A stretch of DNA of 64,000 bases, taken from NCBI GenBank assembly GCA_021107945.1, contig JAIORV010000068.1:1222-65221 (forward strand). The letters run 5' to 3'. Below the pieces are notes generated by a model. The model ran no database searches. It saw only the letters and a program-made list of their open reading frames with translations, and was not told the DNA's origin. Positions 1,696-63,068 of the stretch are shown in pieces. Within the stretch, counting starts at the first letter, position 1. Every line of letters begins with the position of its first letter. This DNA is from Vulcanimicrobiota bacterium. Lineage in GTDB: Bacteria > Vulcanimicrobiota > JAJTBE01. The translations under genes were made by a program, and so were the position numbers.

Positions 1696-2321
1696 GGCAT
1701 CTTCCTTGTTTGTTAAATGATTGGACAAAGTTATGAATTAGATGAAATGAAGAATTCAGGAATAATGGAATATGCAGTTTAAAGTTTTATGAAGATGAGG
1801 TCTGGGGAATAATTCTCGCCATGCCCGTCCGAATAATAATCAACGGTTATTTTCGAGTTCTCCCCTGTCTTTACCGTATCATTCTCTCTCAATTCCATCA
1901 TCAATCCCACCTTTACGGGTTTTGTGGGGTTGGATGAGGGGAAAGGGGAAAGGGGAGGTGGGAAACGAGATCTATTATCCGTCATCCATTATCCGAATCC
2001 CTCTGTGGTCTTTGTGGTGAAAAATATACGTACATTATGCACCATTCGTTTATCGGGACGAGGACGTCCCTCCTACAGTTATGAACTCTGCTATCCGAGC
2101 TTTATTGGCTGTTACAGACCATATTCCAACAAATTCATAAATACCCTCCAGGCTTATTCTTGCCCTTGTTTTTTTTATAATCCTACCCTCCAACAGAACG
2201 GGAATAAAAAAATAGGAAGATAGAGTTTTAAAGGATATCGATAGTAAATATAAAATAAACGAGGCCAGTGTAAAAAAAATATATCCCCTTTGAGAACTTT
2301 AATGGGTAAAAGTATATTTGC

Positions 2322-5300
2322 ATGAATAGACATTATTTATTGGAGAGTATGATGTTAAGTAAAGAGATGGTATCAAGCAAAGAGAATTCCACTAATCATA
2401 GTGAACTGGAGCATATCCCCAAAATTCTACATGTCGATGATGATCTAGGCTTTCTGAAGTTATTTTCAAGCATGTTCGGCAAGCAATTTAATATCTCATC
2501 GGTTGCGTCCGGGACTGAAGCTCTTGACATATTAAAAATAGAAGAATTTGACGCTGTTTTAACCGATTATGAGATGCCGGGCATGAACGGATTGGAACTT
2601 TTAAAAGGGATAAAAAAAGAATACTCTGATCTTCCTGTCATTTTTTATACCGGCCAGGGTAATGAAGATGTAGCAAGGGAAGCTTTTGTGAACGGCGTGA
2701 CCGATTATTTCACAAAATACAGCTATTCTCTTGTCCATAATGAGAAACTCAGGAATTCTATTAAAAATGCAATTGAAAAGAAAAAAGTTGGAGATGCCCT
2801 TGCCAGGAGTCAGGAAACGCTGAGGGAAATGTTCGAAAACATGAGCAGTGCCGTGGCAATATATGAAGCCGTTGATGACTGTAACGATTTTATATTTGTT
2901 AATTTCAACAGGACAGGAGAAAAGATAGAAAATGTCCGAAGAGAGGATTTGATCGGGAAAAGACTCAAGGATGTTTTTCCTGCCGTGGAGGAATTCGGAT
3001 TGTTTCCGGTTTTAAAGAGAGTATGGGAAACAGGTGAGCCTGAAAGATTTCCACTTGCTCTATATCAGGATGAAAGGACAGAAGGATGGAGAGATAATTT
3101 CGTATTCAAGCTTTCAACGGGTGAGGTTGTAGCGATATATGATGATGTGACGGAAAAAAAGAACGCGGAGTTTCGAATTAAACATCTTAACAGGGTCTTA
3201 AAAGCAATCAGAAACGTGAACCAGTTAGTTGTAAGAGAAAAAGACAAGGAAAAACTCCTTCAGGGCGTTTGTGACAATCTTATTGAAACAATGGGTTATG
3301 TAAGTGCCTGGATAGCTATTATTGATAAAGAAGGAAGTTTCTTAACGGCAAAAGAAGCGGGAGTCGGAGAAGAATTTGCCAAGTTTTATGAGAGATTGGA
3401 GAAGAATGATTACCCTGAATGCATTAAAATTGCCTGGAGGGAGGTAGGGGTGATTTCATACACGGGGGAAGAAATATTAGATATGGATTGTCCTCTTAAA
3501 GATGTTTATATAGGAAATTCAGGAATGACAACGCGAGTTGAACACTTTGGACGAATTTTTGGATTTTTATCAATTATAGTTCCAAGAAATATCATTATTA
3601 ACGAAGAAGAAAAATCGCTGTTTTACGAAGTTGCGGGTGATATTGCATACGCCCTTGACAGTCTTGAAATTAAAGAGGAAAGGAATGGTCATTGGAAATC
3701 TCTGAAGGAAAAGTCACTACAGTTTATTGAAAGAGGAAAAGAGCTGAATTGTCTTTACAAAATATCCAGATTTATAGAAAAAAAGGATGTTTCAGGTGTT
3801 TCAGTAGATCAGATGCTTCAGGGTATTGTCGGGTTGATACCACCGGGATTTCATCACCCGGAAATCACTGTGGCGAGGTTTGTTGTTAACGGTATAGAGT
3901 TTATGACGAAAGGTTTTGTAAAAACTCCATGGTTGGTCAAATCGGATCTATTTGTCGATGGTAATATAATTGGAGCTTTGGAAGTTTATTACACAGAAAA
4001 GATTTCCGATATTTACGAAGATCCGTTTCTTCCGGAAGAAAAAATGTTAATAAATGCAATAACCGAGAGAATGGGGAGGGTTATAAAACGTAAAAGAACG
4101 GAAAAATTATTAAAGAGAGAGCATGCTGTTTTGAGCAATATCATAGAAACAAGTCCCGCCGGGGTCTCGACGGTGGATAAAGACGGCAATTTTACATTTG
4201 CAAACACAAAGGCGGAAGAAATATTAAAATTGGAGAGAGATGAAATCAACAAAAGAAAGTATAACGATCCGAAATGGCATATTACTGACTTTGAGGGGAA
4301 GTTTTTTCCGGATGTTATGCTGCCTTTCAACATTGTAAAGAGAACCCTGAAGCCTGTTTATAATGTGCACCACGCGATTGAAGCAGAGCATAGTGAAAGA
4401 GTGCTTCTGTCTATTAGCTCCTCTCCCCTTTTTGATGAAAACGGGAATTTTGACGGTATGGTATCAACGATTGAAGATATAACCCAAAAAATTAGAATGG
4501 AGAAAGAGCTATTAAACATGGAGAAGCTTGAATCGATTGGAGTTCTTGCGGGTGGAATCGCACATGATTTCAATAATGTTCTCACTTCAATAATCGGAAA
4601 TATATCACTTGCAAAAATTAACCTCGAACCTGATGAGGAAGCTTTTGAAGCATTGACGGATGCAGAAAAATCATCCGATCAGGCAAGAAAGCTTACAAAG
4701 CAAATATTGACATTCGCAAAAGGCGGAGTACCGGTTAAAAAGACTGTATTTATTGAAGATTTTATCAGGAATACAGTTCAATTCTCCATGAGAGAATCAA
4801 ATGTGGCGGTTGAATTCAACTTTGAAGATGAATTATGGACTGTTGAAATTGATGAAGATCAGATGGCAAGAGCGCTATACAATATAGTAATAAATGCACA
4901 ACAGGCCACTCCCGGCGGTGGAGTAATAAAAGTTAAAGTACAGAATGCTATTCTTAACGAAACTGAAGTCACTACTTTGAAGAAGGGGAAATATGTAAAG
5001 GTATCCGTGCTCGACCAGGGATCGGGCATTCCGGAAAAAAATATCAATAAAGTTTTCGACCCATTTTTCAGTACAAAAGAAATTGGAAGAGGAATGGGAC
5101 TTACAACGGCATACTCGATCATTAAAAAGCATGAAGGCGATATTGTAGTAGATTCAGACGGTAAATCCCGGACGGAAGTTATCTTCTATATTCCGGCATT
5201 ATTAAAGAAAGAAAAGATTAATGTACATACTATTGCTGAGCCAGTTCCCGTTAATGGGAGAATCCTTGTTGTTGATGATGAAAGAATAGTGAGAAAAGTT

Positions 5301-6423: not shown

Positions 6424-7001
6424 AATTATCCTCCGCATCCCTTGTTTTTCATCTGTTCAGTCAGGGTAGCCGAGGGTAGATATCCCCGGCGCAATTCTAA
6501 TCTAAAGAAATTCAAGATGTATGAATGAATACCTTTTCATAAAAAAGCTGTAATATCCGTTTATCGGGATGGGGACATCCCTCCTTTATGGGAAAGGGGA
6601 AAGGGGAGGTGGGAAAGGGGAGGTGGGAAACGAGATCCATTATCCGTCATCCATTTTCCATTATCCGTTTATCGTTATCCGTTTATCGTTATCCGTTTAT
6701 CGTTATCCGTTTATCGGGACGAGGACGTCCCTCCTACAGCTCCGCTCCCCGCTCCGCATAACCCTCTGTGATCTCTGTGTCTTCTGTGGTGAAAAAACAT
6801 ACATCCTGTAGTATCCGTTTATCGGGATGGGGACATCCCTCCTTTATGGGAAAGGGGAAAGGGGAAAGGGGAGGTGGGAAACGAGAGGCGGGAAGCGGGT
6901 CATCCGTTCTCCCCTTTGTGGTCTTTGCGGTGAAAAAAAATGTTATCAAAGATTAGGTCATGTTAGCACAATTCAACACACCACAGCAACATTACACCTA
7001 T

Positions 7002-9995: not shown

Positions 9996-10718
9996 GCTTG
10001 CCTGCCTGAGCAATAAACTATTCACCGCAAATGTCCCTCCTATAAATTTAGAGGCGGGAGGTGAGAGGCGGGAGGTGAGAAGCGGGGAGCGGGATCTGTT
10101 CTGCACCATCTGCCATCATTCATTTTCTTCGTATCTTCGTGATAAAAAAATCTCTGTGGTCTCTGCGATCTCTGCGGTGAAAAAATACGTACATCCTGCA
10201 CTATCCGTTTATCAGGATGGGGACATCCCTCCTGTATGGGAAAGGGGAGGTGGGAAACGAGATCCATTATCCGTCATCCATTTTCCATTATCCGTTTATC
10301 GGGACGAGGACGTCCCTCCTACAGATTCGGGCTGCATTATCCGTTTTCCGAATTCCTCTGTGGTCTTTGCGGTAAAAAACACGTTGGATGGGGACATCCC
10401 TCCTGCAAACGCGAGAAAGGCCTTCCGAAATGACATTCGCTTACGTCCCAATCATTAAATTGTGAAAAAAATCCTTTAAACGGGAAGGTATTTGTGATGT
10501 TGTAAAGAAAGAAAAAGCGATTTTAATTGCCATAATTTCCAGATGGAACCCAGGATATAAAATTCCCAGGGAAATGGCAAGCGATTTGGGGTATGTATAT
10601 TGAAGGTACGGGCTGAAAAACCATGCCGGCATTGTCGGTTCCTAAATTTTTGGATTATGAGAAGTAGCCGAATCTATATCAAGGGTCAATACCCAAAATT
10701 TCTAATAAGAACCAGGGG

Positions 10719-13246: not shown

Positions 13247-13811
13247 TGATAACAGGAGAGAAATAAGGGTTGCAGGATTCGGAGGACAGGGAATTGTCCT
13301 GTCGGCGGTTATCCTGGGCAAGGCGGCTTCCATTTATATGGGAAAAAAGGCGGCGGTAATGCAAAGTTACGGGCCGGAATCCCGCGGAGGTGCATGTAGC
13401 GGAGCGATCGTCATTGACGAGGAGACGGTGGATTATCCATACGCCACAAGACCCGATGTATTGCTTTTCCTGTCGCAGGAAGCCTATGCAAAGTATCGCA
13501 AGACGCTTAAAAAGGGTGGATTGATGATTGTCGAAGAAGACCTGGTGGAGCTTGCAGGCGATGACGGGGATGCAATCATATACAAGGTCCCGGCCACAAG
13601 GATGGCGGAAAACCTGGGGAAGAAGATTGTTGCAAACATTATTATGCTTGGCGCCCTGGTGGGAATCTCCGACATAATCACATTTTCTGCAATAAAACAG
13701 TCAGTACTTTCCATGGTTCCCCCAAAAACATTAAAAATCAATCAAGAAGCCGTGGAGCAGGGCTATGAATATGGCAATAAAATAAAGAAGGCTGTGGAGG
13801 TATCCACATGA
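13233..13811 (+). CDS. korG: 2-oxoacid:ferredoxin oxidoreductase gamma subunit
   Basis: ATG at 13233 (MQISDDNRREIRVAGFGGQGIVLSAVILG, the gamma-subunit GxGGQG motif); 14-nt overlap with korB; its stop overlaps the hdrA ATG at 13808 (ATGA). Confidence 0.8.
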   Translation: MQISDDNRREIRVAGFGGQGIVLSAVILGKAASIYMGKKAAVMQSYGPESRGGACSGAIVIDEETVDYPYATRPDVLLFLSQEAYAKYRKTLKKGGLMIVEEDLVELAGDDGDAIIYKVPATRMAENLGKKIVANIIMLGALVGISDIITFSAIKQSVLSMVPPKTLKINQEAVEQGYEYGNKIKKAVEVST

Positions 13812-15763
13812 AACGTATCGGAGTATTTGTATGTCACTGCGGAATAAATATCGCGGGGACACTTGATATCAACAAGATTATACACAGGATAAGCAATTAT
13901 CCTGGAGTGGCGCATGCCGAGCATTATGAATATATGTGCTCTGACCCGGGACAGAATATTGTCAGAGATACCATCAAGGATCAATACCTTGACGGCATAG
14001 TGGTCGCGGCTTGCTCGCCTACCCTTCATGAAACAACATTCAGAAACGCCGCAAAGGATGCGGATATGAATCCGTACATGGTCGAAATCGCCAACATCAG
14101 GGAGTATTGCTCCTGGGTGCACAGGGATAGGCCGGAAGATGCGACGGAAAAGGCCATCAGGATTATCAGAACGGCGGTTGAGAAAGTAAGACGGAATGAA
14201 TCTCTTTACCCCGTAAAAATCCCGGTTTTTCATAAATGCCTCGTGATCGGCGCAGGAATCAGCGGAATCCAGGCGGCGCTTGATGTCGCAAATGCCGGGT
14301 TTGAAGTGATCCTTGTGGAAAAAAGTCCGACTATCGGCGGGAGGATGGCACAGCTATCGGAAACATTCCCGACGCTTGACTGCAGTCAGTGTATCCTGAC
14401 GCCCAAGATGGTGGAGGTTTCAAGACACCCCAAAATCAGGTTGATGGCATATAGTGAAGTAAAAGAGGTTACAGGCTCAATCGGCAATTTCCATGTCAAA
14501 ATCCTGAAAAAACCCACATACGTTGATACCGATAAATGCAACCTGTGTGGAGAATGCGTCAATGTCTGTCCCATCATCATTCCCAGCGAGTTCGACAGGG
14601 GAATGAGCATGCGAAAAGCGATATATATGCCGTTCCCGCAGGCGGTACCGTCAACTTACTGCCTCGATGAAGCGAACTGTCTCGGTCTTAATCCTCTTCG
14701 TTGCAGTAAGTGCCAGGATGTTTGCGAACCCGGAGCTATTAACTATGATATGAAGCCTGAGATTATCGAGGAGGATGTGGGAGCGATTATCGTTGCCACC
14801 GGGTATGACCTATACCATAAAGAAGCTTTAACCGAGTATGGGCTGGGAATATACGAGGATGTCATAGACGGTCTTCAGTTCGAAAGACTTCTTTCTGCAT
14901 CCGGCCCCACATCGGGAGAGATACATCGCCCGTCCGACGGTGAGGTGCCAAAGGATGTAGTATTCATCCAATGCGCCGGCTCAAGGGATGAGAAGCATAA
15001 CCCGTACTGCTCGAAGGTATGCTGTATGTACACGGCAAAGCATGCGATGTTATACAAGCATCGAGTACCCGACGGCCAGGCATATATATTCTATATCGAT
15101 ATAAGGAGCGCGGGCAAGGATTACGAGGAGTTTGTCCAGAGGGCGATGGAAGAAGATCGGATCCTCTACCTGCGCGGAAAAGTCTCGAAAGTTTTCAAGG
15201 AAGGCGAAAAGTTGGTGGTCTGGGGCGTTGACACATTAACAGGTCAGAAAGTGGAAGTTCTTGCCGACCTGGTTGTCCTTGCAACTGCAATAGTTCCCAG
15301 AGCGGCAACGCCGGAGATTGTTAACAAGCTGAAAATAGCCGCCGACGGGAATGGTTTCCTGAAGGAAGCCCACCCGAAGCTCAGACCGGTGGAAAGCTTG
15401 ACATCGGGGATATTTCTGGCGGGAGCGGCACAGAGTCCCAAAGACATACCCGATGCCGTGTCCCAGGGAAGCGGATCCGCCTCGAAAGCTATAGGAATCC
15501 TGTCGCAGAAGAAGCTCCAGCATGATCCCACAATAACCGATGTGGAGGAGATAGCCTGCGGTGGTTGCGGAATCTGTATCTCGGTCTGCCCATACACTGC
15601 CCTGAGCATGGATGACAGACGAAATGTTGTCCTTGTTAATGATGTTCTCTGCGAAGGATGCGGAACTTGTGCCGCCGCCTGTCCCAGTGGCGCCGCCGAG
15701 TTGAGGAATTATACTAACCGGCAGGTCAGGGAAATGATATGCGCCGCTTTGAGTAAGGTATGA
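13808..15763 (+). CDS. hdrA: heterodisulfide reductase subunit A-like flavoprotein (FAD, multiple [4Fe-4S])
   Basis: 651 aa; N-terminal VFVCHCGINIAG Cys motif; FAD-binding GAGISG; ferredoxin-type CNLCGECVNVCP, CGGCGICISVCP, CEGCGTCAAACP; length and architecture typical of HdrA. Confidence 0.9.
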   Translation: MKRIGVFVCHCGINIAGTLDINKIIHRISNYPGVAHAEHYEYMCSDPGQNIVRDTIKDQYLDGIVVAACSPTLHETTFRNAAKDADMNPYMVEIANIREYCSWVHRDRPEDATEKAIRIIRTAVEKVRRNESLYPVKIPVFHKCLVIGAGISGIQAALDVANAGFEVILVEKSPTIGGRMAQLSETFPTLDCSQCILTPKMVEVSRHPKIRLMAYSEVKEVTGSIGNFHVKILKKPTYVDTDKCNLCGECVNVCPIIIPSEFDRGMSMRKAIYMPFPQAVPSTYCLDEANCLGLNPLRCSKCQDVCEPGAINYDMKPEIIEEDVGAIIVATGYDLYHKEALTEYGLGIYEDVIDGLQFERLLSASGPTSGEIHRPSDGEVPKDVVFIQCAGSRDEKHNPYCSKVCCMYTAKHAMLYKHRVPDGQAYIFYIDIRSAGKDYEEFVQRAMEEDRILYLRGKVSKVFKEGEKLVVWGVDTLTGQKVEVLADLVVLATAIVPRAATPEIVNKLKIAADGNGFLKEAHPKLRPVESLTSGIFLAGAAQSPKDIPDAVSQGSGSASKAIGILSQKKLQHDPTITDVEEIACGGCGICISVCPYTALSMDDRRNVVLVNDVLCEGCGTCAAACPSGAAELRNYTNRQVREMICAALSKV

Positions 15764-15770
15764 AAATTAA

Positions 15771-15796
15771 ACGCGGAGGACGCAGAGGACGCAGAG
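15771..15796 (+). repeat. 3-unit heptad array (CGCGGAG-GA-CGCAGAG-GA-CGCAGAG) abutting the start codon of the GxxExxY gene
   Basis: Read directly: acgcggaggacgcagaggacgcagagATG. Its inverted partner is at 16190-16226. Confidence 0.8.
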
Positions 15797-16234
15797 ATGA
15801 ATAAGGCGGAGATGATCAATAAAATAACCGGGAAAATTATCGGCGTGGCAATTGATGTTCACAGGGTGCTGGGACCCGGATTGCTGGAGTCTGCTTACGA
15901 AGCCTGTATGGTGTTCGATCTTATAGAAGCCGGTTTGAAGGTGGAACAGCAAAAACCTCTGCCGGTTATCTATAAAAATGAAAAACTTGATTGCGGATAT
16001 AGACTGGATTTACTTGTTGAAGATGAGGTGATTGTCGAAATAAAATCTGTTGAGAAAGTATTACCCATACATAAATCTCAGTTATTATCTTATTTAAGGC
16101 TTTCAGATAAAAAGGTCGGATTATTAATAAATTTCAATGTAATAATCCTTAAAGATGGAATTTCAAGGATAGTAAATAATTTTCAAGACTCTGCGGTCTC
16201 CGCGATCTCCGCGTTGAAAAAAGAAGGTGAATGA
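15797..16234 (+). CDS. GxxExxY-family protein (PD-(D/E)XK nuclease superfamily, PDDEXK_3-like)
   Basis: 145 aa; motif GVAIDVHRVLGPGLLESAYEACM contains G-x-x-E-x-x-Y; downstream D...E.K-like acidic/Lys residues (LLVEDEVIVEIKSVEK); inserted between hdrA and mvhD; its stop overlaps the mvhD ATG (ATGA). Confidence 0.8.
   Translation: MNKAEMINKITGKIIGVAIDVHRVLGPGLLESAYEACMVFDLIEAGLKVEQQKPLPVIYKNEKLDCGYRLDLLVEDEVIVEIKSVEKVLPIHKSQLLSYLRLSDKKVGLLINFNVIILKDGISRIVNNFQDSAVSAISALKKEGE
16190..16226 (+). repeat. 3-unit heptad array in inverted orientation (CTCTGCG-GT-CTCCGCG-AT-CTCCGCG-TTGAAAAAA), inside the last 12 codons of the GxxExxY gene
   Basis: Reverse complement is TTTTTTCAA-CGCGGAG-AT-CGCGGAG-AC-CGCAGAG, matching the 15771-15796 array unit for unit. 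Confidence 0.8.
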
Positions 16235-16671
16235 TGAAACCGAGTGATAATGGATTTGAGCCAAGAATAGTGGCTTTTTTATGCAAGTGGTGCGCCGGCG
16301 CCGGAGCGGATCTTGCCGGTGTCAGCAGGCTCCAATATGCCCCGAACGCAGTACCCATCATGTTTAACTGCACGGGCAGGCTGGATCCCACATTTGTCCT
16401 GAAGGCATTTACTCAGGGAGCCGACGGTGTTTTCATCGGGGGCTGCCATCCAGGTGATTGTCATTATCTCACAGGTAATTATAATGCCCTCAAAAGGGTA
16501 ATTCTTTTAGAAAAAGTCCTGGTGCAATTTGGAATCAACCCAAGACGCCTTCGCCTGGAATGGGTTTCCGCTTCCGAGGGAAACAAGTTTGCCCGGGTGA
16601 TGAATGAGTTTTCCGCTGAAATAAAGAAGCTGGGTCCCCTTGAAAAACTGGAGGTGTCCCGATGCGAATAA
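16231..16671 (+). CDS. mvhD: methyl-viologen-reducing hydrogenase delta subunit-like protein
   Basis: 146 aa; IVAFLCKWCAGAGADLAG...NCTGRLDP...GGCHPGDCHY, the MvhD/FlpD signature Cys pattern. Confidence 0.85.
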   Translation: MMKPSDNGFEPRIVAFLCKWCAGAGADLAGVSRLQYAPNAVPIMFNCTGRLDPTFVLKAFTQGADGVFIGGCHPGDCHYLTGNYNALKRVILLEKVLVQFGINPRRLRLEWVSASEGNKFARVMNEFSAEIKKLGPLEKLEVSRCE

Positions 16672-17069: not shown

Positions 17070-17074
17070 CGGAA

Positions 17075-17165
17075 AATGGATAATGGATAATGGAAGATGG
17101 AACTGTAGGAGGGACGTCCCCGTCCCGATGAACGGATAACGGATAACGGAGGACGGATCCAACCT
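17075..17165 (+). repeat. intercistronic composite repeat (GGATAAYGG units plus reverse-complemented GGGACG palindrome module) between hdrC and hdrB
   Basis: ggaaaatggataatggataatggaagatggaactgtaggagggacgtccccgtcccgatgaacggataacggataacggaggacgg; same family as the elements at 2047-2078, 6706-6740, 18841-18882, 37441-37492 and 62918-62975. Confidence 0.75.
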
Positions 17166-18819: not shown

Positions 18820-18950
18820 AACGGAAGCCAGAGGCCGGATCTGTAGGAGGGACGTCCCCGTCCCGATAATCGGTTATCGGAAATTGCAGCTCAAACCTTT
18901 AGGTTTGCCGCTTCTGCTCTGCGGACTCTGCGTTAAATAAAAAAATCGAA
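18820..18950 (+). repeat. intercistronic composite repeat (palindrome module plus heptads CTCTGCG-GA-CTCTGCG-TTAAATAAAAAAA) between the sdhB-like and sdhA-like genes
   Basis: ctgtaggagggacgtccccgtcccgataatcggttatcgg ... cttctgctctgcggactctgcgttaaataaaaaaa. Confidence 0.75.
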
Positions 18951-24848: not shown

Positions 24849-25175
24849 TGTCATCCTGAGCGAAATACGATTTTTACCTTTTCTTAATAAACCCTGGCAA
24901 GAATGAGTTTTACTTGCCTCCGATGTCTTCCACAGCGAAGGATCTCTTCCCCGGGAGTCTCCTTAAAAATAATCCTCATTCTAATTGAGATTTGCTCCTT
25001 ATATACCATTGGGGTCGAGATTCTTCGCTATGTAAATCCTCGAATATAAGAGAATCCCATCTTTGAGAAAGTCATTGGATTAAAGTAATTCTTTCTTGTA
25101 TCGCTCAGAATGACAATTTGGATGCCTTCATTTAATAAGAAAGCCCATGCTCAGAATGACAATTGCGTAAGTCCA
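24849..25175 (+). repeat. interspersed ~330-bp repeat, copy 1 (contains GTCATYCTGAGCG / CGCTCAGAATGAC and GAGATTCTTCGC sub-motifs)
   Basis: About 75% identity over ~330 bp to 43600-43962, in the same orientation (e.g. ttacttgcctccgatgtcttccacagcgaaggatctc versus ttacttacttccgatgtcttccacagcgaaggatctc). Confidence 0.75.
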
Positions 25176-25319
25176 ATTATTAATGACTCCGTGTTCTTCG
25201 TGTCTTCGTGGTAATTATCAGCTATCCGACTTTTGACCTCCATTTTCTGGCCTCCGTAATCCATATTCCTTTATCTTTTTTCCCTATACGTGGTCTTTGC
25301 GATGAATAGACACTTGCCT

Positions 25320-26312: not shown

Positions 26313-26510
26313 TTTTTCACCACGGAGCCACGGAGGGCACGAAGATTTTTTTTACTCCGTGTTCTTCGTGACTTCGTGGTGGATTGCGGAGTACGGAAAT
26401 GTTTTTTCACCACAGAGGACGCAGAGGACACAGAGGACGCAGAGGTTTCCCGGATAATGGAAGATGGAGAACGGATTACGGATCCCACTTCCCACTTCCC
26501 ATTTCCCTAA
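26313..26510. repeat. cluster of three heptad arrays plus a C-rich (G-quadruplex complement) module
   Basis: ttttcaccacggagccacggagggcacgaag / ctccgtgttcttcgtgacttcgtggtgg / ttttttcaccacagaggacgcagaggacacagaggacgcagagg / ggataatggaagatggagaacggattacggatcccacttcccacttcccatttccc. Confidence 0.8.
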
Positions 26511-27903: not shown

Positions 27904-27974
27904 TTTTTACCACGGAGCCACGGAGTGCACGAAGAATTATAAAAACCTCCGTGTTCTTTGTGACTTCGTGGTGG
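27904..27974. repeat. inverted pair of heptad arrays forming a long imperfect hairpin (ACCACGGAG-CCACGGAG-TGCACGAAG / 13-nt loop / CTCCGTG-TTCTTTGTG-ACTTCGTGG)
   Basis: Read directly; T-run lies 5' of the hairpin, not 3', so it is not a canonical intrinsic terminator. Confidence 0.7.
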
Positions 27975-29865: not shown

Positions 29866-29995
29866 GCGAAGTATAGTTTATTCACCGCAGAGAGCGCAGA
29901 GGACAAGTAGAGAAACAAAAGACACCCATATTTTTGGGTGCCTTTTATTTTTTTGAATGGAAATATATTTTATAGACCCGGATTGGTGATTCAGG

Positions 29996-31384
29996 TCACT
30001 GGACCTTGCCATCGGGCTTTTTTTCTAACGGTTTACCTTTGATCTCGGGCAATTTTTCTAACGGTTTACCTTCGCCACCGGGCTTTTTTTCCAACGGTTT
30101 ACCTTTGATCTCGGGCAATTTTTCGAACTGTTTTCCTTCGCCACCGGGCATTTTTTTAAACTGTTTACCTTCGCCACCGGGCATCTTTTCGAACGGTTTT
30201 CCTTCGCCACCGGGCATCTTTTCGAACTGTTTTCCTTTACCACCGGGCATTTTTTCGAACGGCTTTCCTTCCACCGGGGTTGTTAACGGGGGAAGCATCT
30301 GCGTATTACTGCCTGGTGGGGGCATAGAATTACTACCACCTTGATTCATACCTTCTTGTGGCGAAACCATGGGGCGTTTCTGATAGAATTTTATGTCCTT
30401 GATTACGACGCCGGCAACATTTTTCTGCGGTATTTTCCCGGCATGGGCATTCTTCTTTATAACACTAAATAATTGTTGGGCAACGCCCCCCCAATCAGCT
30501 TCAACATTGGCTTTTAAGATACCTCCCTTTATAATAAAAGGTATGGTCATAAGTTCGTCACCAAATGAAACCATGCTGACATCTTTCATATTTAGCTCAT
30601 CAAGAACTTTATAAACATCAAGTTGTGCCACTTCACTCATAACAACAATGCCTTTAACATCCCGGTATTTTTTCAAGATACTCCCAATTTTTTTATATAG
30701 CATACGCTTCTCTTTATTTATAGAAAGCATTCTTCCGGGGTCGAGGCTCAACTTTTCTCCTGCTTTGATTTCACATACCGCTACAAGGTTTAGTTTTTTG
30801 TCTTTCTTTACTATTTTTTTGAAATTCTTTGCCATCTTCTGATTTAATGGAACCTCATCATGGATTACAAGTACCTTCGCCCCCTTGCCAAGCTTTTTTG
30901 CAAGGTAATCCTCCACTGCTTTAGCCAAATTGCTATAATCAACAACTAAAGTATAAGTCGAATTCTTCTGGATGGAGGTTCTGGAAATAACGAAAACGGG
31001 AACATTGACAGACTTAGTAACATTTATGCATTCTTCCATCTGTTCTGGCGGTAAATCAACCAGACAAATGGCATCGATACCTATATCGACGAGCTGATGG
31101 ATAATTCTCCCGGAACCCATACCCCCTTCTTTTCCCAGGTATATATCAATAATCGCTACATCGGCGTTACTCAATGCAAAATCGCTTATCCTATTCTTTA
31201 AAGTCTGAGGGGAATCAAACGAATAGATCATGGCCACCTTTACTTTCCCCTGCTTAGAAGTGGGGTCCGAAGTTGATTTTTTTGGATCGGTAACATTCCC
31301 TTTCTGTGGTTGACATGAAGTTAAAACCAAAATGAAAAATACTGCCAGTATGACGCAAATAGAAGTTGAATGCCTCTTAAACAC
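29996..31384 (-). CDS. lipoprotein with periplasmic-binding-protein-like (sugar-binding/LacI-type) domain and C-terminal 12-aa tandem repeats (GKPFEKMPGGEG)x~9
   Basis: 462 aa; lipobox LTSC; PBP-like core; 36-bp DNA tandem repeats at 30000-30295. Confidence 0.65.
   Translation of the reverse strand: MFKRHSTSICVILAVFFILVLTSCQPQKGNVTDPKKSTSDPTSKQGKVKVAMIYSFDSPQTLKNRISDFALSNADVAIIDIYLGKEGGMGSGRIIHQLVDIGIDAICLVDLPPEQMEECINVTKSVNVPVFVISRTSIQKNSTYTLVVDYSNLAKAVEDYLAKKLGKGAKVLVIHDEVPLNQKMAKNFKKIVKKDKKLNLVAVCEIKAGEKLSLDPGRMLSINKEKRMLYKKIGSILKKYRDVKGIVVMSEVAQLDVYKVLDELNMKDVSMVSFGDELMTIPFIIKGGILKANVEADWGGVAQQLFSVIKKNAHAGKIPQKNVAGVVIKDIKFYQKRPMVSPQEGMNQGGSNSMPPPGSNTQMLPPLTTPVEGKPFEKMPGGKGKQFEKMPGGEGKPFEKMPGGEGKQFKKMPGGEGKQFEKLPEIKGKPLEKKPGGEGKPLEKLPEIKGKPLEKKPDGKVQ
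30000..30295. repeat. intragenic 36-bp tandem repeat (~8-9 copies) encoding a GKPFEKMPGGEG-type repeat
   Basis: ggtttacctttgatctcgggcaatttttctaac / ggtttaccttcgccaccgggctttttttccaac ... periodic 36-mers with point variants. Confidence 0.85.
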
Positions 31385-35303: not shown

Positions 35304-35424
35304 GGAATCAAGAGTGGAGTAAGGAGAAGAGACTATCGAACAAGTGGTTTTTCACCGCAGAGATCGTGGAGTTCGCAGAGGATAACCGGAATTTTGAGGT
35401 TTTTCGATACCCTCAGAAGAGGGT

Positions 35425-35520
35425 TCAAATTTCCATCTTCCATCTTCCATCTTCTATCTTCTATCTTCCATCTTCTATCTTCTATCTTCTATCTTCTTTC
35501 TTCCATCTTCTATCTTCCCA
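35425..35520. repeat. heptamer microsatellite (ATCTTCY)n, ~13 copies
   Basis: catcttccatcttctatcttctatcttccatcttctatcttctatcttctatcttctttcttccatcttctatcttccc; related to GGAAGATGGA modules in the composite repeats. Confidence 0.85.
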
Positions 35521-37126
35521 CTTTTATCGGTATGTTTATCTCGAATAGCCTGTGAAACGGGAAAGAGATGGGACCGATCCGGATTATTGCTTTCTTTTCA
35601 TATTTATTGCCGGGAATGTTTGCCGTGAACTGAAATACAATTCGCTCTCCCGGCGTTTTACCTATTTCACCGGGATCGAGGGGGATATAGTTTATTTTGC
35701 CGGAGCCCGGAATATTGCTTGCCCCACTTTCCGCTCCGGGTTCTCCTTCTTTTAAAACCCTATATTTAATCCCCAGATCATTTAAATTCTCCATAATTTT
35801 TTTGTTTGTAAGATCAAGAGCTTTTTTCTCTTCGTCAATACTCATCCTGTGATAGCTATATGCAGGTATCCCTGTCTTTCCCGGAAGTTTGAGGTGGATC
35901 CCGTCAAGGTATATAAAGTCCGTTATCATTCTCTCGTATAAAAATGCAATTTTCTCCTTGTTCGCTTTCCTGTCGGGGCAATACAGGGAGGCGCATCCTT
36001 CGCAAAGCGCAGTGCCGAGGGTGTTTGTGCCCATTCCCCAGTTTGCATAACCGGAAAGCCTGTTGAACATTCCTCTTTTGTACAATGCCCTGAAGAATTC
36101 CGCCTGCTGCTTGCGATTCGACAGGTCTCCCACCGTGACAGGCTTTTCTTTTAGCAGATTTTCTATTCTGTCTAAAAAATCATCAATCGATTTTTCCCCT
36201 GACAGGTGATTCACTGCAAGAATAAGGTCGGCTTTTTCAGGTTCATAGACAACATCCGCGCCGATTGAATCGACCATATCCAGAGCGACGGACATTATGG
36301 GGGTTGCACTGTAATGATCAATCTTCATCCTGGATGAGGTTATATCCCGATATTCGATATAGACTTTCAGTCTTTTTTTCCTTTTCTCATTCAGGAACCG
36401 GGTAAAAAGAACCATCGCCGATTCATCAATTCCAAGGCGGATCCTGTCAACATCCGAGATGAGGACTTTTTTTCCGATGCCGGCTCTCTTAATATAATCC
36501 TTCATCTTCACGATTTCCCTGACCTGATTGGATATATCTGTAACATCGTCGCCGGAGACGCTGAGGAAGTCTATGACGCCCTCCTTCACATATTCCAGCA
36601 ACTTCATGTTTGCGGACATATTACGTTGCCTGTGCTGAGCTTCTTTCCGGGGGATGCTTGTGAACACTAGGATTTTGAGTTGAGGGTATTTTTTTCTTAT
36701 TATCTTGATGAGGGCTACTGAGTTTAAAGCCTGCCTCGTTGAAACTGAGCTTTTTCTTGATTCCAGAAGTCCTCCATAGATGAGGGAATCGGCGGATATA
36801 ATCAGTAGCTTACAATCATCGTCAAGGTTGTGTTTGAGCCAGAACCAGACATTCCATTGCTTTTTGAATGCGTCCTCATATTTGCTGATGTTTCCCATAA
36901 TCTCACGGGGAGGCACGACGGGATCCCATCCGCATATTTTCGCGATATATTGAACATATTCATATGTCTGATTTCGGCTGTCCAGTGGGATTATTACAAC
37001 CTTTTTGGAATTGGATTGAGCCGGGAAAGAGGATGTCGTCAGAAATGAAATTAATATGAGTGTGAAAAAGAATATTAAAAAGACACGCTTTGTTCGGAAT
37101 ATTGAATTATTATTTGTTTTATTCAT
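35510..37126 (-). CDS. secreted hypothetical protein (possibly DUF4127-like)
   Basis: Track ORF runs to 37237, but the first 37 codons overlie the three-hairpin repeat element 37172-37300. The internal Met (MNKTNNNSIFRTKRVFLIFFFTLILISFL, signal peptide) is the likely start; no strong SD, so the start is uncertain. Confidence 0.55.
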   Translation of the reverse strand: MNKTNNNSIFRTKRVFLIFFFTLILISFLTTSSFPAQSNSKKVVIIPLDSRNQTYEYVQYIAKICGWDPVVPPREIMGNISKYEDAFKKQWNVWFWLKHNLDDDCKLLIISADSLIYGGLLESRKSSVSTRQALNSVALIKIIRKKYPQLKILVFTSIPRKEAQHRQRNMSANMKLLEYVKEGVIDFLSVSGDDVTDISNQVREIVKMKDYIKRAGIGKKVLISDVDRIRLGIDESAMVLFTRFLNEKRKKRLKVYIEYRDITSSRMKIDHYSATPIMSVALDMVDSIGADVVYEPEKADLILAVNHLSGEKSIDDFLDRIENLLKEKPVTVGDLSNRKQQAEFFRALYKRGMFNRLSGYANWGMGTNTLGTALCEGCASLYCPDRKANKEKIAFLYERMITDFIYLDGIHLKLPGKTGIPAYSYHRMSIDEEKKALDLTNKKIMENLNDLGIKYRVLKEGEPGAESGASNIPGSGKINYIPLDPGEIGKTPGERIVFQFTANIPGNKYEKKAIIRIGPISFPFHRLFEINIPIKVGR

Positions 37127-37357: not shown

Positions 37358-37492
37358 ATCACAGAGGACACAGAGGACACAGAGATATTAATATTTCCCC
37401 CCCGATTATCTTCCGCGAACTCTGCGTTAAAAAAACACTTCCGCCTTCCGTCACCATTATCGGGACGGGGACGTCCCTCCTACAGTTCTGAC
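37358..37492 (+). repeat. composite repeat: heptads (CACAGAG-GA)x3, CTCTGCGTTAAAAAAA, palindrome module ATTATCGGGACGGGGACGTCCCTCCTACAG
   Basis: Read directly. Confidence 0.8.
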
Positions 37493-38240: not shown

Positions 38241-38276
38241 GACATATAATCCCTTCGTAATTATTCAGACCCATCA

Positions 38277-38333
38277 CTGTAGGAGAGGCTTCCAGCCTCG
38301 ATTTTCGTGGCAAGATGCCACTCCTACAACTGA
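38277..38333. ncRNA. ~57-nt structured element (outer stem TGTAGGAG/CTCCTACA enclosing hairpins GAGGCT-TCC-AGCCTC and GTGGCA-AGA-TGCCAC), copy 1
   Basis: A second copy at 57283-57337 carries compensatory substitutions in two stems; a degenerate third copy lies at ~43100-43133. Confidence 0.45.
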
Positions 38334-43423: not shown

Positions 43424-43962
43424 GTCATTTCTTCACGAAGCTTTCCCTCGATCGGAGCGAAGTATCTCCCGTAAGAGAGTCGCCCACGCTGTCATTCCTT
43501 CACGGAGCCTGCCCTCGAGCGGAGCGAAGGGTTCAAGGACAGGCTCTGAGCGGAAAAAGATCATCTTACTTTATTCGATCAATCCCGGTAAGAATGTATT
43601 TTACTTACTTCCGATGTCTTCCACAGCGAAGGATCTCCTCTCCCGGGTTCTTCTCACAACAATCATTCTTATTAATACTTGCTCCTCCATGCCACGGGGG
43701 TTGAGATTCTTCGCTGTGTTAATCCTCGTAGATCAAGGTAATCCCGTCTTTGAGAAAATCATAGAAGTAAAGTTATTCTCTCGTGATCCGCTCAGAATGA
43801 CATGCTCAAGTCTTTCTTGATCCGCTCAGAAGGACAAGAAGCCTTGGGAGACTGAATAATTACGCCTGAACCTTTGACAAAAAGTAAATGCACCCAAATG
43901 AATTATTAAAACGGCTTGGTTAAGAGATTCTTCGCGGGCGCTCAGAATGACAATGCGTAAGT
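43424..43962 (+). repeat. interspersed repeat, copy 2 (extended; includes two tandem ~60-bp GTCATTYCTTCACGRAGC...CGGAGCGAAG sub-repeats)
   Basis: Aligns with 24849-25175; the track ORF 43353..43820 across it is judged spurious because the two copies are not conserved in a common reading frame. Confidence 0.75.
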
Positions 43963-47830: not shown

Positions 47831-47935
47831 AATTCCTCCTATATGGGAAAGGGGAAAGGGGACATGGGAAACGGGATCCGACCTCCGACTCACGGATCCC
47901 GCTTCTCGTCTCTCACCTCTCGCCTCCATTCTATG

Positions 47936-50134: not shown

Positions 50135-50290
50135 AATCACGGAGGCCGCGGAGGATAACCGGAGGAAAAATATTGATATCTCTGAGGTAGATGGAAGTGG
50201 GAAATGGGAAGTGGGAAATAACTGGGATTTTAAGCTTTTTCGACACCCTCACATCCCGTCTCCCGCCTCTCGCCTCCCGTTTCCCGCTTC
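50135..50290. repeat. composite repeat: heptads ATCACGGAG-GC-CGCGGAG-GATAACCGGAGG and a C-rich complement of the G-tract module
   Basis: gatggaagtgggaaatgggaagtgggaaataactggg ... cccgtctcccgcctctcgcctcccgtttcccgcttctcgtc. Confidence 0.75.
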
Positions 50291-51203: not shown

Positions 51204-51647
51204 TGCTTGCTTCCCCCTGTTCATGAAGAATCCATTAAAAAGGCAATACTTTCAATTTATATTATACCCTTTTCATGCATATTATTTCCCTTCCCACTTC
51301 TGATAAAATCCATTTCCTTTTCTCTATAGCAGGTACCAATTCGCCTGAGCTGTTTTTAAACTATGATGGTAATAAATGAGCGAATCGAAGATGATGCAGG
51401 GGACTAGTTAAAACCACAGAGGACACCCTGAAACAACCCCGCCCTGAAACAAGTTCAGTGTAGGCGGACAGGGTTCAGGGCAGGTACAGAGAATTCTCTG
51501 ATTTATCTCAGTGCTCTCTGTGTTCTCTGTGGTAAAAAAAACATAGGGGCTGAGCAGTATCGACTTTTAAAACACGACCTAATAAAATAAAGAAGAAAAC
51601 TTGTTTTTTAGCAGGAATTCAAACATACGGAAATAATTATCTGAAAC

Positions 51648-53332: not shown

Positions 53333-53426
53333 GAGAGATAACGACTTTTTTTTTACCACGAAGTCACGAAGGACACGTAAAGAAAAAAGAGAGAAGAAAT
53401 TGGAAGATGGAAATCCGTCACTCGTC

Positions 53427-53545: not shown

Positions 53546-53625
53546 ATCCGTCCTCCATTACCCTCTGTGCCTGCGCTGAACTTGTTTCAGTGTCCTCTGT
53601 GGTAAAAATTTTAACGGTGAAAAAG

Positions 53626-56794: not shown

Positions 56795-57282
56795 TTATAA
56801 ATACAAACTTAAAATTCAACATGGGTAGTATTTAATGAAACCTGGAATCAATCCTTCAAAAGCCCAGGTCAGTAGTGTCCTTTGTCCAATCTTTCCGCAA
56901 ACAAAAAGGATACCTTATTTTATCAAGGTCAGCAAACCCAAAACCACTCTTTTACTTGGACAACATTGACTTTTTCTATTTACTTTTCAGATTTAACGCC
57001 CGTATCCTTATGTGTCTTTAATATATTTTTTTTCCTGGGGCTTATCAAAGACGTCTTTCCCAGTTCAGGCCTTTTTTCGTTTACGGCAACATCTTTCTCC
57101 AGATCCGATTTTTCAAAAAATAAATAGAAAAATACAAGGAGACCAAATAGAAAGAGCATGCTAATTAAGAAGAAAAACATTATCACTTTCACCATTTCAC
57201 CCTTCTATTTCTTTTTATACCCATTGTCAGAGGAAATAACCATTTCATGAAAAATTTATTTATATCTATTCAGACCTCCCAC

Positions 57283-57337
57283 AGCAGGAGAGCCTTCCAG
57301 GCTCGATTTTCGTGGCAGGATGCCACTCCTGCAAACA
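57283..57337. ncRNA. structured element, copy 2 (outer stem GCAGGAG/CTCCTGC; hairpins GAGCCT-TCC-AGGCTC and GTGGCA-GGA-TGCCAC)
   Basis: Compensatory changes relative to the copy at 38277-38333 preserve both helices. Confidence 0.45.
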
Positions 57338-57520
57338 ATACCACTAAATTAAGGCAGGAGTGACGCATCTTTAAAGCGGAATGGCATGAGAACATCGATA
57401 AAACCCATAGGGCATCTCACATTGTTATTATAATCCAGCGCCAAAACCCACATCACCCATGTGTTGACTCACTAATTCATGGGCATTGCCTATGGGAGGG
57501 ATTTCCCAACCCCGATAAAT

Positions 57521-57947
57521 TAGTGTCTGTCCCTAATTAACAAAATGGCGTCTGTCCCTGTCCCTATTAGTGAATTAATTAGGGACAGACACCAATTATT
57601 TTCCCCTCCGGATATGCCCACAGGTTTTGGGTAATATGATGTATAATGGGAAAAACCTATCGTTGCAATCCTTGTAATTCTTGTTAATAAAAATAGTGTC
57701 TGTCCCTAATTAACAAAATGGCGTCTGTCCCTGTCCCTATTAGTGAATTAATTAGGGACAGACACCAATTATTTTCCCCTCCGGATATGCCCACAGGTTT
57801 TGGGTAATATGATGTATAATGGGAAAAACCTATCGTCGCAATCCCTGCAATTCTTGTTAACAAAAATAGTGTCTGTCCCTAATTAACAAAATGGTGTCTG
57901 TCCCTGTCCCTGTCCCTGTTAATGAATTTATTAGGGACAGACACCAA
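57521..57947 (+). repeat. 173-bp tandem array, 2.5 units. Each unit has a perfect 18-bp inverted repeat GTGTCTGTCCCTAATTAA ... TTAATTAGGGACAGACAC (34-nt spacer carrying a third half-site) followed by an extended -10 element TGTATAAT
   Basis: Units start at 57521, 57694 and 57867; inter-unit segments ~97% identical; TGnTATAAT at 57640-57647 and 57813-57820. Confidence 0.85.
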
Positions 57948-58133
57948 TAGGGGGAACTGAACATTTACCTTCGAATTGGGTGTAAGATAAATATATGAAA
58001 ATACTTTTTGCAAGGAAGGATAAACGCGTACCTCTTAAAGAATAAAACTGCCTGTTGATTCTGTAAAACATATAATTCTATAATTCGGAAGTATTTAATA
58101 ACACTTTTAAAACCGCACCTGGAGAAAAATGTA

Positions 58134-58835
58134 ATGCAAAAGAATGCAATCGCAATATTGACTGTTATTTTCTATGTTTTTATTGGAGCAGGGCTTTCAT
58201 ACTCCGAGGCGGCACGAACAATCACAGATCGCAGCGACCCTTATTCCCCCAAGAGTTATGCAAATATCGACTTTGTAAAAAAATTCAATCAGGCAATACC
58301 GGGACTTGAAAATTTAGGTGAAAAAATAGATCAGGCACTTTTATACAGTGATGTAAAAATGCTGACGGAGTCCGCCGCTGTGTTGGGATATTGCGAGAAG
58401 CAATGGGAAGTAAAATCTTCCGGGATTACGGCGGACAAACTCATGGACATCGCCGGACAAATAGCGGATTACAGAAAATCACCCGATGAGTTGAAGGCTG
58501 TAATCAATACATACAATGAAAGATCCATTTCCGTCTATAACCCTGAGAAAGCAAAAAAATACGAAACAATTCTGCAAAATCTGAAAACCCATCCTGCCGG
58601 ACAAAATCAATGCGGCACGTTGTTTGTTCGTAACAATACCGGTAAAAACAACATACTGATATATGTGAATAAAATATATTTTGGCACTGTAAGGGCAGGC
58701 AGAAGTGTTAAGTTCAGTAATATTCCCACGGGTAAAATAGATCTATCGGCAAATGATGGGAAACATAGAAAATGGGGACCGAGAAAAGTATATTTATCAC
58801 GCAACATAATTTTTCGATGGGAATTGTATCTTTAA
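58134..58835 (+). CDS. secreted hypothetical protein
   Basis: 233 aa; signal peptide MQKNAIAILTVIFYVFIGAGLSYS. Confidence 0.5.
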   Translation: MQKNAIAILTVIFYVFIGAGLSYSEAARTITDRSDPYSPKSYANIDFVKKFNQAIPGLENLGEKIDQALLYSDVKMLTESAAVLGYCEKQWEVKSSGITADKLMDIAGQIADYRKSPDELKAVINTYNERSISVYNPEKAKKYETILQNLKTHPAGQNQCGTLFVRNNTGKNNILIYVNKIYFGTVRAGRSVKFSNIPTGKIDLSANDGKHRKWGPRKVYLSRNIIFRWELYL

Positions 58836-61538: not shown

Positions 61539-61612
61539 CGCAAAGAAGCAAAGAACACAAAGAAAATTATTTTTAAACCTTTGTGGTCTTTGCGGTCTTT
61601 GCGGTAAAAAAA
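61539..61612. repeat. inverted heptad arrays forming a long hairpin (CCGCAAAG-AAGCAAAG-AACACAAAG / 16-nt loop / CTTTGTG-GTCTTTGCG-GTCTTTGCGG-TAAAAAAA)
   Basis: Read directly between gap and pgk. Confidence 0.75.
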
Positions 61613-62871: not shown

Positions 62872-63068
62872 CTTTTCACCACAGAGGCCGCAGAGGTATT
62901 CGGGGAATGGAACCCTGATCTGTAGGAGGGACGTCCTCGTCCCGATAAACGGATACGCAGGACGGATGTTTTATTTCACCGCAGAGATCACTGAAATAAA
63001 TTCAGGGCAGGCTCAGAGCACGGAGTTTTTTGATTTAAATTCTTCGTGTCCTTCTCGTCTTCGTGGTT
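62872..63068. repeat. composite repeat cluster (heptads TTTTCACC-ACAGAGG-CCGCAGAGG; reverse-complemented palindrome module; TTTCACCGCAGAGATCAC; TTCTTCGTG-TCCTTCTCG-TCTTCGTGG)
   Basis: Read directly, in the convergent gap after pgk. Confidence 0.75.

Follow-up and report, generated by a model that had tools for sequence, protein, structure and literature searches.

The 64-kb window analyzed here, i.e. the whole stretch of 64,000 nucleotides (nt) from contig JAIORV010000068.1 of a Vulcanimicrobiota bacterium, carries a compact cassette between the hdrA-like and mvhD genes of an hdr operon. The cassette (15764-16222, ~460 bp) consists of a cap, an array of three 9-nt heptad units, the ATG and open reading frame (ORF) of a GxxExxY-family nuclease, an inverted three-unit array and a second cap. 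On balance, we lean toward the view that it is a selfish cassette of the intervening sequence (IVS) type, belonging to a class distributed across phyla in which a GxxExxY or S23p ORF is carried in a stem loop formed by arrays. The ORFs of this class encode 120-140 aa; S23p is the four-helix-bundle protein of 23S rRNA IVSs, and the characterized members of the class are the ORF-bearing 23S rRNA IVSs. ORF-less versions (array, short spacer, inverted array) fill the intergenic regions of the window genome. The cassette and its surroundings are organized as follows (L033-L037 denote loci of related genomes).

13808-15763, plus strand: hdrA-like gene, with HdrA-type Fer4, Pyr_redox_2 and FAD_oxidored Pfam matches and orthologues in L033-L037
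15764-15771, plus strand: degenerate left cap AAATTAAA, starting 1 nt past the hdrA stop (canonical form TTTTTCAC)
15772-15796, plus strand: left terminal array, 3 x (heptad + 2 nt), CGCGGAG-GA-CGCAGAG-GA-CGCAGAG, abutting the ATG
15797-16234, plus strand: GxxExxY / PDDEXK_3 gene of 145 aa, assigned by profile matches
16189-16213, minus strand: right terminal (inverted) array, on the plus strand CTCTGCG-GT-CTCCGCG-AT-CTCCGCG, within the 3' end of the ORF
16214-16222, minus strand: right cap TTGAAAAAA (canonical form GTGAAAAA)
16223-16236, plus strand: host junction, with the mvhD ribosome-binding site GAAGGTGA and the start ATGATG, overlapping the stop of the cassette ORF
16231-16671, plus strand: ORF of mvhD (FlpD/MvhD; start at 16231 or 16234; E = 6e-51)

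The cassette thus precisely fills the interval from the hdrA stop codon to the mvhD ribosome-binding site, with the kor genes further upstream of hdrA in the window. The presence of a 145-aa GxxExxY gene at this site, proposed in an earlier reading of the same DNA (hereafter the original prediction), was confirmed by matches to PF13366 and TIGR04256 and by the profiles of the neighboring genes, and the left array (15772-15796) runs into the ATG as described there. The hdrA-like gene ends with the TGA at 15761-15763, not with a TAA a few bases earlier, and the nuclease ATG lies 33 nt past this stop instead of the 34 nt given previously. The arrays had been described as reverse complements "unit for unit", which holds for the heptads (20 of 21 positions match) but not for the spacers (0 of 4). 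The GAGGA of the left array, located 7 nt 5' of the ATG, can by its position serve as the Shine-Dalgarno sequence of the nuclease ORF. At the other end, the stop codon (TGA, 16232-16234) overlaps the ATG at 16231-16233 in the predicted ATGA, but translation of mvhD probably begins at the second ATG (16234), where the L033 orthologue also starts.

No terminator was detected between the cassette and the operon genes, and promoter-like matches inside the cassette were at chance level, in line with the proposal that the gene is probably expressed with the operon. In the predicted minimum free energy RNA structure the arrays of the cassette are paired with each other (z = -5.3). No Rfam family reached its gathering threshold in the window, with only chance-level matches in the region 15700-16300, and neither rRNA nor an S23p gene was found in the window.

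The only Pfam match of the cassette protein was to PF13366 PDDEXK_3 (E = 7.4e-42, 142.8 bits against a cut-off of 22), accompanied by a match to TIGR04256 GxxExxY (E = 5.2e-44, 149.3 bits against a cut-off of 35). The protein contains both the GxxExxY motif and the PD-(D/E)XK catalytic residues D..ExK, and G28-E31-Y34, D71, E81, K83 and Q95xxxY99 are invariant in 24 homologues. In an AlphaFold model built with the 24 homologues, residues 1-130 (mean predicted local distance difference test score 82.8) are modeled as a Cas4/RecB-like minimal nuclease with a restriction-endonuclease-like fold, while residues 131-145, encoded by the right array and cap, are disordered. This likeness came from a fold search; a sequence search of PDB gave no match for the GxxExxY protein. 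PADLOC and PHROGs returned only weak Cas4/endonuclease matches (E 6e-4 to 8e-3) and no defense-system membership, and profile searches with the single 145-aa cassette ORF gave no transposase family match. Compared with Cas4/RecB-family nucleases, the window protein is small (~125 aa), has no iron-sulfur cluster domain, is encoded outside a CRISPR locus and has the GxxExxY N-terminal helix motif.

The ratio of nonsynonymous to synonymous substitution rates (dN/dS) among Brocadia and Jettenia GxxExxY copies is 0.06-0.08, indicating strong purifying selection and therefore a functional, selected protein. The closest homologues of the window protein are found in anammox Planctomycetes and Deltaproteobacteria, a pattern that fits horizontal spread of the cassette and is uninformative on the host, and GxxExxY proteins with 70-78% identity were found across phyla.

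GTDB genomes of Nitrospinota, Cloacimonadota, Verrucomicrobia, Planctomycetes, Acidobacteriota, Bacteroidota, WOR-3 and Geobacterales supplied 29 GxxExxY loci for comparison. The inverted-array bracket was scored as the best inverted repeat between the flanks of a gene, with 187 ORFs of the same loci as controls. Twenty-one of 26 GxxExxY genes (81%) exceeded the 95th percentile of the controls (Mann-Whitney p = 1.2e-13). Bracketing by inverted arrays characterizes the GxxExxY family as a whole, and the predicted linkage of these genes to inverted arrays of a dispersed heptad is true across phyla. Most loci share a common design, in which a left cap and tandem units end at or near the ATG, and inverted units with a cap begin where the conserved ..NNFPDS ends. 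The CGCAGAG/CACAGAG unit is used at many loci; units CTTGGCG, CCACCAG, CAAAGAG, TACGAAT and CGGAAAA appear in the same layout. In Geomobilimonas, for example, the gene is flanked by CGGAAAA/CGGATAA arrays of its own genome, and ORF-less arrays of this kind are located nearby. The left cap typically begins 0-5 nt past the upstream stop codon, and both neighbors are co-directional with the cassette at 14 of 23 loci (both opposite at two).

Homologues with 66-78% identity (Brocadia, Jettenia, Deltaproteobacteria, Aminicenantes) end in DSLRTLRPLR*, in DSAVSAISAVK* or at NNFP. The 3' array is therefore conserved as nucleotides and not as codons, one or the other of two frames being translated in some homologues and none in others; the arrays also persist between copies with saturated synonymous sites. 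In a rough neighbor-joining tree the type of repeat unit broadly tracks the protein clade, with unit switches nested within clades (L010, L011). Strict co-evolution of units and clades was accordingly rejected, and only a broad correlation was retained.

The cusB|cusA junction of Brocadia, Jettenia and Kuenenia is occupied by three cassette types with three different repeat units. Type 1 (B. sinica, B. pituitae, Jettenia) has TTCAC-(CGCAGAG)3 arrays and a gene of the window-like GxxExxY clade; its B. sinica representative, P0013, starts 33 nt past the cusB stop, and its right cap is separated from the cusA ATG by 2 nt. Type 2, present in three other genomes, has GAAAC-(CACAGAT)n arrays around a gene of a distant GxxExxY clade, which is frameshifted in L164, intact in L168/169 and half-replaced by a palindromic insert in L170. 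Type 3 (L165/166) has period-7 AGGATGA arrays around a 124-aa PF05635 23S_rRNA_IVP gene, whose product is not a nuclease. Similarity between CusB proteins does not predict the cassette type: L164 carries type 2, although its CusB and that of B. sinica share 90% identity. That each cargo is accompanied by its own arrays argues that array and ORF are a unit. Arrays and ORF were thus observed to occur together, with distinct repeat units per cargo at one junction. The L170 insert, at 4230-4430 of this Kuenenia-labeled locus, replaces the 5' half of the type 2 gene and has palindromes of the GGTTCAGGTTTGCAACCTGAACC type at its borders.

Between B. sinica and B. pituitae, the synonymous divergence (dS) of the cassette is 0.28, compared with 1.09 for cusB and 1.13 for cusA (Fisher p = 9e-11), and the dN/dS of the cassette is 0.08. 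Judged by these values, the cassette was renewed at the cusB|cusA junction after the hosts had diverged and is ~4x younger than its flanks. A single WOR-3 genome carries nearly identical, sharp-ended cassettes of 560 nt at different loci, and their right end provides the ribosome-binding site AGGAGG 5-9 nt before the downstream host ATG. More generally, the downstream host ATG is located within 2-25 nt of the right ends of the cassettes in L024, L027-L029, L032 and the window (16223-16230). From their sequence, the cassettes seem to be built to preserve translation of the next cistron. Three of the five WOR-3 cassettes (L028, L029, L032; at approximately position 3290) contain an 18-nt perfect palindrome, ATCCGTTAGCTAACGGAT, within the GxxExxY ORF, creating a TAG stop; it looks like a tiny secondary insertion element. 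The S23p cargo is found in a similar setting on cyanobacterial plasmids, where inverted heptamer arrays (GGGTGTA, GCAGGGA, GGGAAAA, G-rich) flank four of six S23p genes.

The hdrA|mvhD junction itself was compared in three orthologous kor-hdr loci obtained through MvhD homologues. The empty sites anticipated by the original prediction were found in L034 (MvhD 78% identical) and L035-37 (81%), where the hdrA stop is followed, after 26-66 nt without arrays, by the mvhD ATG. The closest relative, L033 (MvhD 91% identical, 82% nt identity across the operon), carries at the same place TGA-AATTTCAC-CGCAGAG-GA-CGCAGAG-AA-CTCAGAG ... CTTTGTG-GT-CTTTGCG-GTAAAATAAA, and its left cap retains the canonical TTTCAC. 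Arrays at the same site in the window and in L033 point to their entry in a common ancestor. The ~150 nt of filler between the L033 arrays is unlike the GxxExxY gene; its interpretation as a decayed copy was rejected (alignment score 16, compared with 18.4 +/- 2.6 for shuffled sequences; no protein match). The comparison is consistent with either loss and replacement of the ORF in L033 or entry of the ORF into a pre-existing array pair in the window lineage. Neither further GxxExxY copies without flanking heptads nor the gene with conserved flanks in relatives lacking the repeat family, both named originally as evidence against the link, were encountered.

Arrays of the same heptad are dispersed throughout the window. 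CGCRGAG occurs 31 times (6.4 expected), and arrays of at least two strict units with a 9-nt period occur 12 times (0.02 expected). With a looser definition (unit C[AG][CT][AG][AG]AG, or one unit adjoining a cap), 25 array sites were identified, compared with 0.4 in shuffled sequences, and 24 of them are intergenic in a window that is ~84% coding. The earlier figure of more than 25 other intergenic sites was close, the count besides the two arrays of the cassette being 23. The heptad units are non-palindromic, so a hairpin arises only between two arrays. In tandem repeat-unit notation the candidate array substrate would be (CGCAGAGNN)n, with (CGCAGAGGA)3 as the three-unit form.

A scan of metagenome contigs for TTTCAC-CGCAGAG-NN-CGCAGAG yielded at least 120 stretches. 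The matches listed, an unbiased metagenome sample, comprised 124 capped arrays, three of them with an ORF, each GxxExxY; ~50 of the 124 were followed within 8-230 nt by an inverted array and a GTGAAA cap, and the remainder were solo. In these matches ORF-less copies greatly outnumber ORF-bearing ones, at a ratio of ~20:1, which supports the original prediction. When all loci are combined, convergent array pairs show a bimodal distribution of spacings, with 70 pairs below 250 nt, none at 250-350 nt and 11 at 350-500 nt. The last group consists of GxxExxY cassettes, ten recognized with a hidden Markov model and one (L007) by tblastn and synteny with L006. The one candidate for other cargo between CGCAGAG arrays, a RibD_C gene in L053, proved to be a regular host gene flanked by two distinct hairpins. 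ORF-less elements have non-conserved spacers, which are often palindromic or made of other short tandem units, and the intergenic regions of the window show the same make-up.

Similar ORF-less elements have been reported before. Paired tandem 7-9-nt sites of Geobacter metallireducens were annotated as putative integration host factor (IHF)/global-regulator sites (PMC2700814), and their class 2, TCTCCGTS[Y], includes the CTCCGTG variant of the window; heptamer hairpins of the short tandemly repeated repetitive (STRR) type were found at cyanobacterial operon junctions, e.g. hupS-hupL (PMC2670836). These elements resemble those described here in their tandem 7-9-nt units, location in intergenic DNA and at operon junctions, inverted pairing at variable distance and hairpin potential. 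They differ in that the reports comprise ORF-less elements only, draw no link to GxxExxY or S23p, and read the elements as regulator sites or transcript stabilizers.

The closest known counterpart of the window cassette is the ORF-bearing 23S rRNA IVS (Coxiella burnetii, Leptospira; S23p / PF05635), since the architecture of the two, including the heptamers, is the same. The Coxiella IVS is a 428-nt "selfish genetic element" with an S23p ORF and two to three tandem GACAGAT heptamers directly 5' of the ORF start, at the first of which RNase III cuts, and Ralph and McClelland proposed in 1993 that the IVS ORF is a mobility component (PMC4990558). Both elements are ~430-460 nt long and carry a small ORF in the loop of a terminal-inverted-repeat stem, with heptamers directly 5' of it (GACAGAT x2-3 in Coxiella, CGCAGAG x3 in the window). 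Both reside in transcribed regions in the sense orientation, are sporadically distributed and horizontally transferred, and have common short ORF-less versions. They are further linked by the S23p cassette that shares the Brocadia junction with GxxExxY cassettes, and by the GACAGAT unit, which is one base off the CACAGAT of type 2. They differ in host site (helix 25 or 45 of 23S rRNA versus an mRNA operon junction), in cargo (a PF13366 nuclease under strong purifying selection versus a decaying S23p, PF05635, in Coxiella) and in heptad spacing (2 nt, period 9, versus period 7). RNase III excision, shown for IVSs, would apply to the window cassette by analogy.

According to the IVS-type reading, the cassette would have been acquired at the hdrA|mvhD junction before the window genome and L033 diverged. 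It would be co-transcribed with the operon, with the left array supplying the Shine-Dalgarno sequence of the ORF. In the transcript the arrays would pair to form an interrupted stem of ~25 bp around the ORF, a likely RNase III substrate as in rRNA IVSs. Finally, in what is the least supported step, the Cas4-like nuclease may act on DNA much as a homing enzyme does, helping the cassette that encodes it to persist or spread by cutting unoccupied or ORF-less array pairs or junctions.

Several observations weigh against this reading. The window contains only one copy of the GxxExxY gene, with no further copies or remnants detected in the 64 kb by tblastn with 120 homologues. The L033 allele fits a gene entering or leaving a pre-existing array pair at least as well as movement of a whole cassette, and no consistent target-site duplication was found at the WOR-3 and hdr junctions, the empty sites being too diverged for base-by-base alignment. 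Mismatches between the arms gave no RNA-pairing bias (G.U versus A.C 9:9 in cassettes and 29:34 in hairpins, a low-power test), and the 2-nt spacers of the two arms never pair; there is thus no positive sign of selected RNA pairing, and the RNA step rests on analogy. None of the GxxExxY loci examined is inside an rRNA gene, and no rRNA lies beside any of 40 related loci. Since a non-nuclease cargo has the same architecture, the cassette does not have to encode its own means of mobility. In addition, the literature searched reports no activity of any GxxExxY protein, and a 2012 survey of the superfamily entered PDDEXK_3 as "Unknown ... multiple transfers" (PMC3424549).

A bolder proposal, which we put forward only tentatively, is that GxxExxY proteins are the enzymes that mobilize or maintain heptamer-array hairpins, a pan-bacterial class that would comprise 23S IVSs, STRR hairpins and the Geobacter sites. 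By cutting such hairpins or junctions that are still unoccupied, the nuclease would cause its cassette to be copied into operon junctions in a homing-like way, with S23p cassettes and ORF-less hairpins as passengers or relics.

The original prediction compared the locus with repetitive extragenic palindromic (REP) sequences and REP-associated tyrosine transposases (RAYTs). RAYTs are HUH Y1 transposases (IS200/IS605 TnpA-like), single-copy and vertically inherited, and a REP unit is an imperfect palindrome of 20-40 nt. By this analogy, the GxxExxY nuclease would be a dedicated enzyme that recognizes, cleaves and spreads the arrays, with ORF-less pairs as clients resembling REP doublets forming hairpins (REPINs), an explanation that we consider unlikely but not negligible. 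The layout does agree: a gene for a nucleic-acid enzyme is flanked by inverted copies of a dispersed intergenic repeat, and gene-less hairpin doublets are far more numerous, the ~20:1 ratio holding among the matches listed. There too, GxxExxY is the sole cargo seen among CGCAGAG-type arrays, and the Geomobilimonas gene lies within CGGAAAA/CGGATAA arrays of its own genome, which also occur there as ORF-less ones. The broad tracking of protein clades by unit type, the intact active site and the dN/dS of 0.08 point the same way, and the nuclease may recognize, cleave or mobilize the heptads.

The analogy fails in enzyme class, unit structure and inheritance. The window enzyme is Cas4-like and not an HUH Y1 transposase, and its units are tandem non-palindromic heptads. 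GxxExxY genes are present in multiple copies and undergo horizontal exchange, and switches of unit occur inside protein clades (L010, L011). A further weakness of the analogy is that S23p, which is not a nuclease, shares the design, even at the same junction. Near-identical units, CACAGAT at GxxExxY in Brocadia and GACAGAT at S23p in Coxiella, flank both cargo families (PMC4990558), and the arrays are therefore not specifically tied to this nuclease. The rRNA IVS is the better comparator.

A still less probable explanation is that the heptamer-array hairpins are pre-existing host elements equivalent to STRRs or REPs (transcript stabilizers, terminators or protein-binding sites), the loops of which were invaded by homing-type GxxExxY or S23p genes using the arrays as target or homology arms. 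It would account for the orthologous arrays of the window and L033, with an ORF in one and unrelated filler in the other, for the non-conserved spacers of ORF-less hairpins and for the match between the flanks of each gene and the repeat family of its host genome. ORF-less STRR hairpins at operon junctions have also long been known (PMC2670836), as have Geobacter paired tandem-repeat sites without ORFs (PMC2700814). However, each cargo type at the Brocadia cusB|cusA junction has its own unit, hence arrays change together with cargo; in distant phyla, the last left unit runs directly into the ATG and the first right unit directly follows the conserved ..NNFPDS end; and 25-nt homology arms whose spacers do not match would barely suffice for recombination.

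That the arrays are host regulatory sites, of a global regulator or IHF, with the gene merely located between two of them, as the Geobacter metallireducens annotation of paired 7-9-nt sites might suggest (PMC2700814), is very improbable given the bracketing of 81% of GxxExxY genes across phyla (p = 1e-13), the bimodal pair spacing with GxxExxY as the sole recurrent cargo, the differing array positions between relatives and the conservation of one heptad across phyla, which a single host regulator does not explain.

Returning to the IVS-type cassette, two other kinds of mobile element share some of its features. Free-standing homing endonuclease genes include seg/mob of T4-like phages, and PD-(D/E)XK homing enzymes are known, e.g. 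I-Ssp6803I. Like these, the cassette carries a small nuclease gene wedged between conserved genes, with presence or absence varying among relatives; a homing cycle also fits the repeated colonization of a single site, the degenerate copies in L164 and L170 and the lower age of the gene relative to its flanks. Unlike the cassette, homing genes are without terminal inverted arrays and have one cognate site instead of many junctions per genome. Miniature inverted-repeat transposable elements and terminal-inverted-repeat transposons likewise have terminal inverted repeats, an excess of short ORF-less derivatives and near-identical multi-copy forms, as in WOR-3. In contrast to them, the cassette has no DDE or other known transposase, and no consistent target-site duplication was found as far as the diverged empty sites can be compared; moreover, ORF-less interiors are not conserved and the termini are tandem 7-nt units.

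No paper in the literature searched ties GxxExxY or PF13366 to repeats or mobility, in agreement with the original prediction. The link to heptamer arrays appears to be undescribed there, as do the architecture shared with S23p and the succession of cassettes at operon junctions. These results place IVSs, S23p, GxxExxY and STRR-type hairpins in one architectural class and bear on questions raised since ~1990, namely the origin and mobility of 23S IVSs and the function of the S23p ORF, as well as on the function of STRR-type hairpins and of the GxxExxY family, which is very abundant, with many thousands of members in databases. Members of at least ten phyla carry cassettes at ordinary operon junctions, different cassettes replace each other at a single junction, and strong purifying selection acts on the nuclease cargo, which is at the same time renewed horizontally. 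The Brocadia cusB|cusA and window hdrA|mvhD junctions offer testable systems, with a candidate enzyme and defined candidate substrates. A caution for annotation is that the C-terminal tails and N-terminal extensions of many GxxExxY proteins in databases stem from translation of repeat arrays, and that intergenic mini-ORFs of the "SAVSAV" or "LRPLR" kind are artifacts of such arrays.

The remaining heptad-array sites of the window are listed below.

2001-2022, minus strand: solo array and cap
6764-6796, minus strand: solo array and cap
6914-6935, minus strand: solo array and cap, CTTTGTG/CTTTGCG variant
10152-10182, minus strand: 3-unit array and cap
10356-10377, minus strand: array and cap
18917-18932, minus strand: 2-unit array in the same hdr operon region
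25187-25210, minus strand: CTCCGTG/CTTCGTG-variant array
26315-26378, unstranded: ORF-less hairpin of cap and CACGGAG array, 10-nt loop and inverted array
26405-26444, plus strand: 4-unit array and TTTCAC cap
27905-27970, unstranded: ORF-less hairpin, CACGGAG/CACGAAG variant
29880-29901, plus strand: capped 2-unit array
35350-35380, plus strand: capped 3-unit array
37360-37435, unstranded: ORF-less pair of 3-unit CACAGAG array, ~30-nt spacer and inverted unit(s) with TTAAAAAAA cap
50138-50153, plus strand: 2-unit array
51516-51537, minus strand: 2-unit array and cap
53351-53372, plus strand: capped CACGAAG-variant array
53592-53607, minus strand: single unit and cap
61579-61609, minus strand: 3-unit CTTTGCG-variant array and cap
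62874-62895, plus strand: capped 2-unit array
62974-62989, plus strand: cap and single unit

A second dispersed intergenic module, the near-palindrome CTGTAGGAGGGACGTCCCCGTCCCGATAA, is present at window positions 2050, 6711, 10296, 17103, 18840, 37457 and 62919; it usually adjoins heptad or GGATAA-type arrays and also occurs in L033. Short tandem units of other families (GGGAAAGGGGAGGT, TTATCCGTTTATCG, TCCATCTTCTATCT, GGATAATGGATAACGGA) occupy the intergenic regions that also contain the heptad arrays (1925-1981, 6576-6897, 10042-10273, 47831-47887 and 50178-50234; 6649-6730; 35424-35535; 17072-17158). The CGGATAA-type units of the window resemble the arrays around the GxxExxY gene in Geomobilimonas (L025), and the genome may therefore hold other cassette subfamilies beyond the window.

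Other repeats of the window include a 173-nt unit present three times in tandem at 57517-57948, within the intergenic gap 57127-58134, each copy containing the palindrome GTGTCTGTCCCTAATTAA..TTAATTAGGGACAGACAC. A 33-nt unit in at least eight tandem copies (29942-30304) lies inside the ORF 29996-31384 (minus strand) and corresponds to an 11-residue protein repeat. Two-copy repeats of 68 nt (38262-38329 and 57267-57334, 87% identity) and 91 nt (24878-24968 and 43569-43659, 78% identity) were also noted. Finally, on an Acidobacteria gp4 contig (L020), a SAM_alpha riboswitch match (2817-2892; 39.2 bits against a gathering threshold of 36) is located just 5' of the GxxExxY cassette, an odd finding in Acidobacteria for a family described from Alphaproteobacteria.

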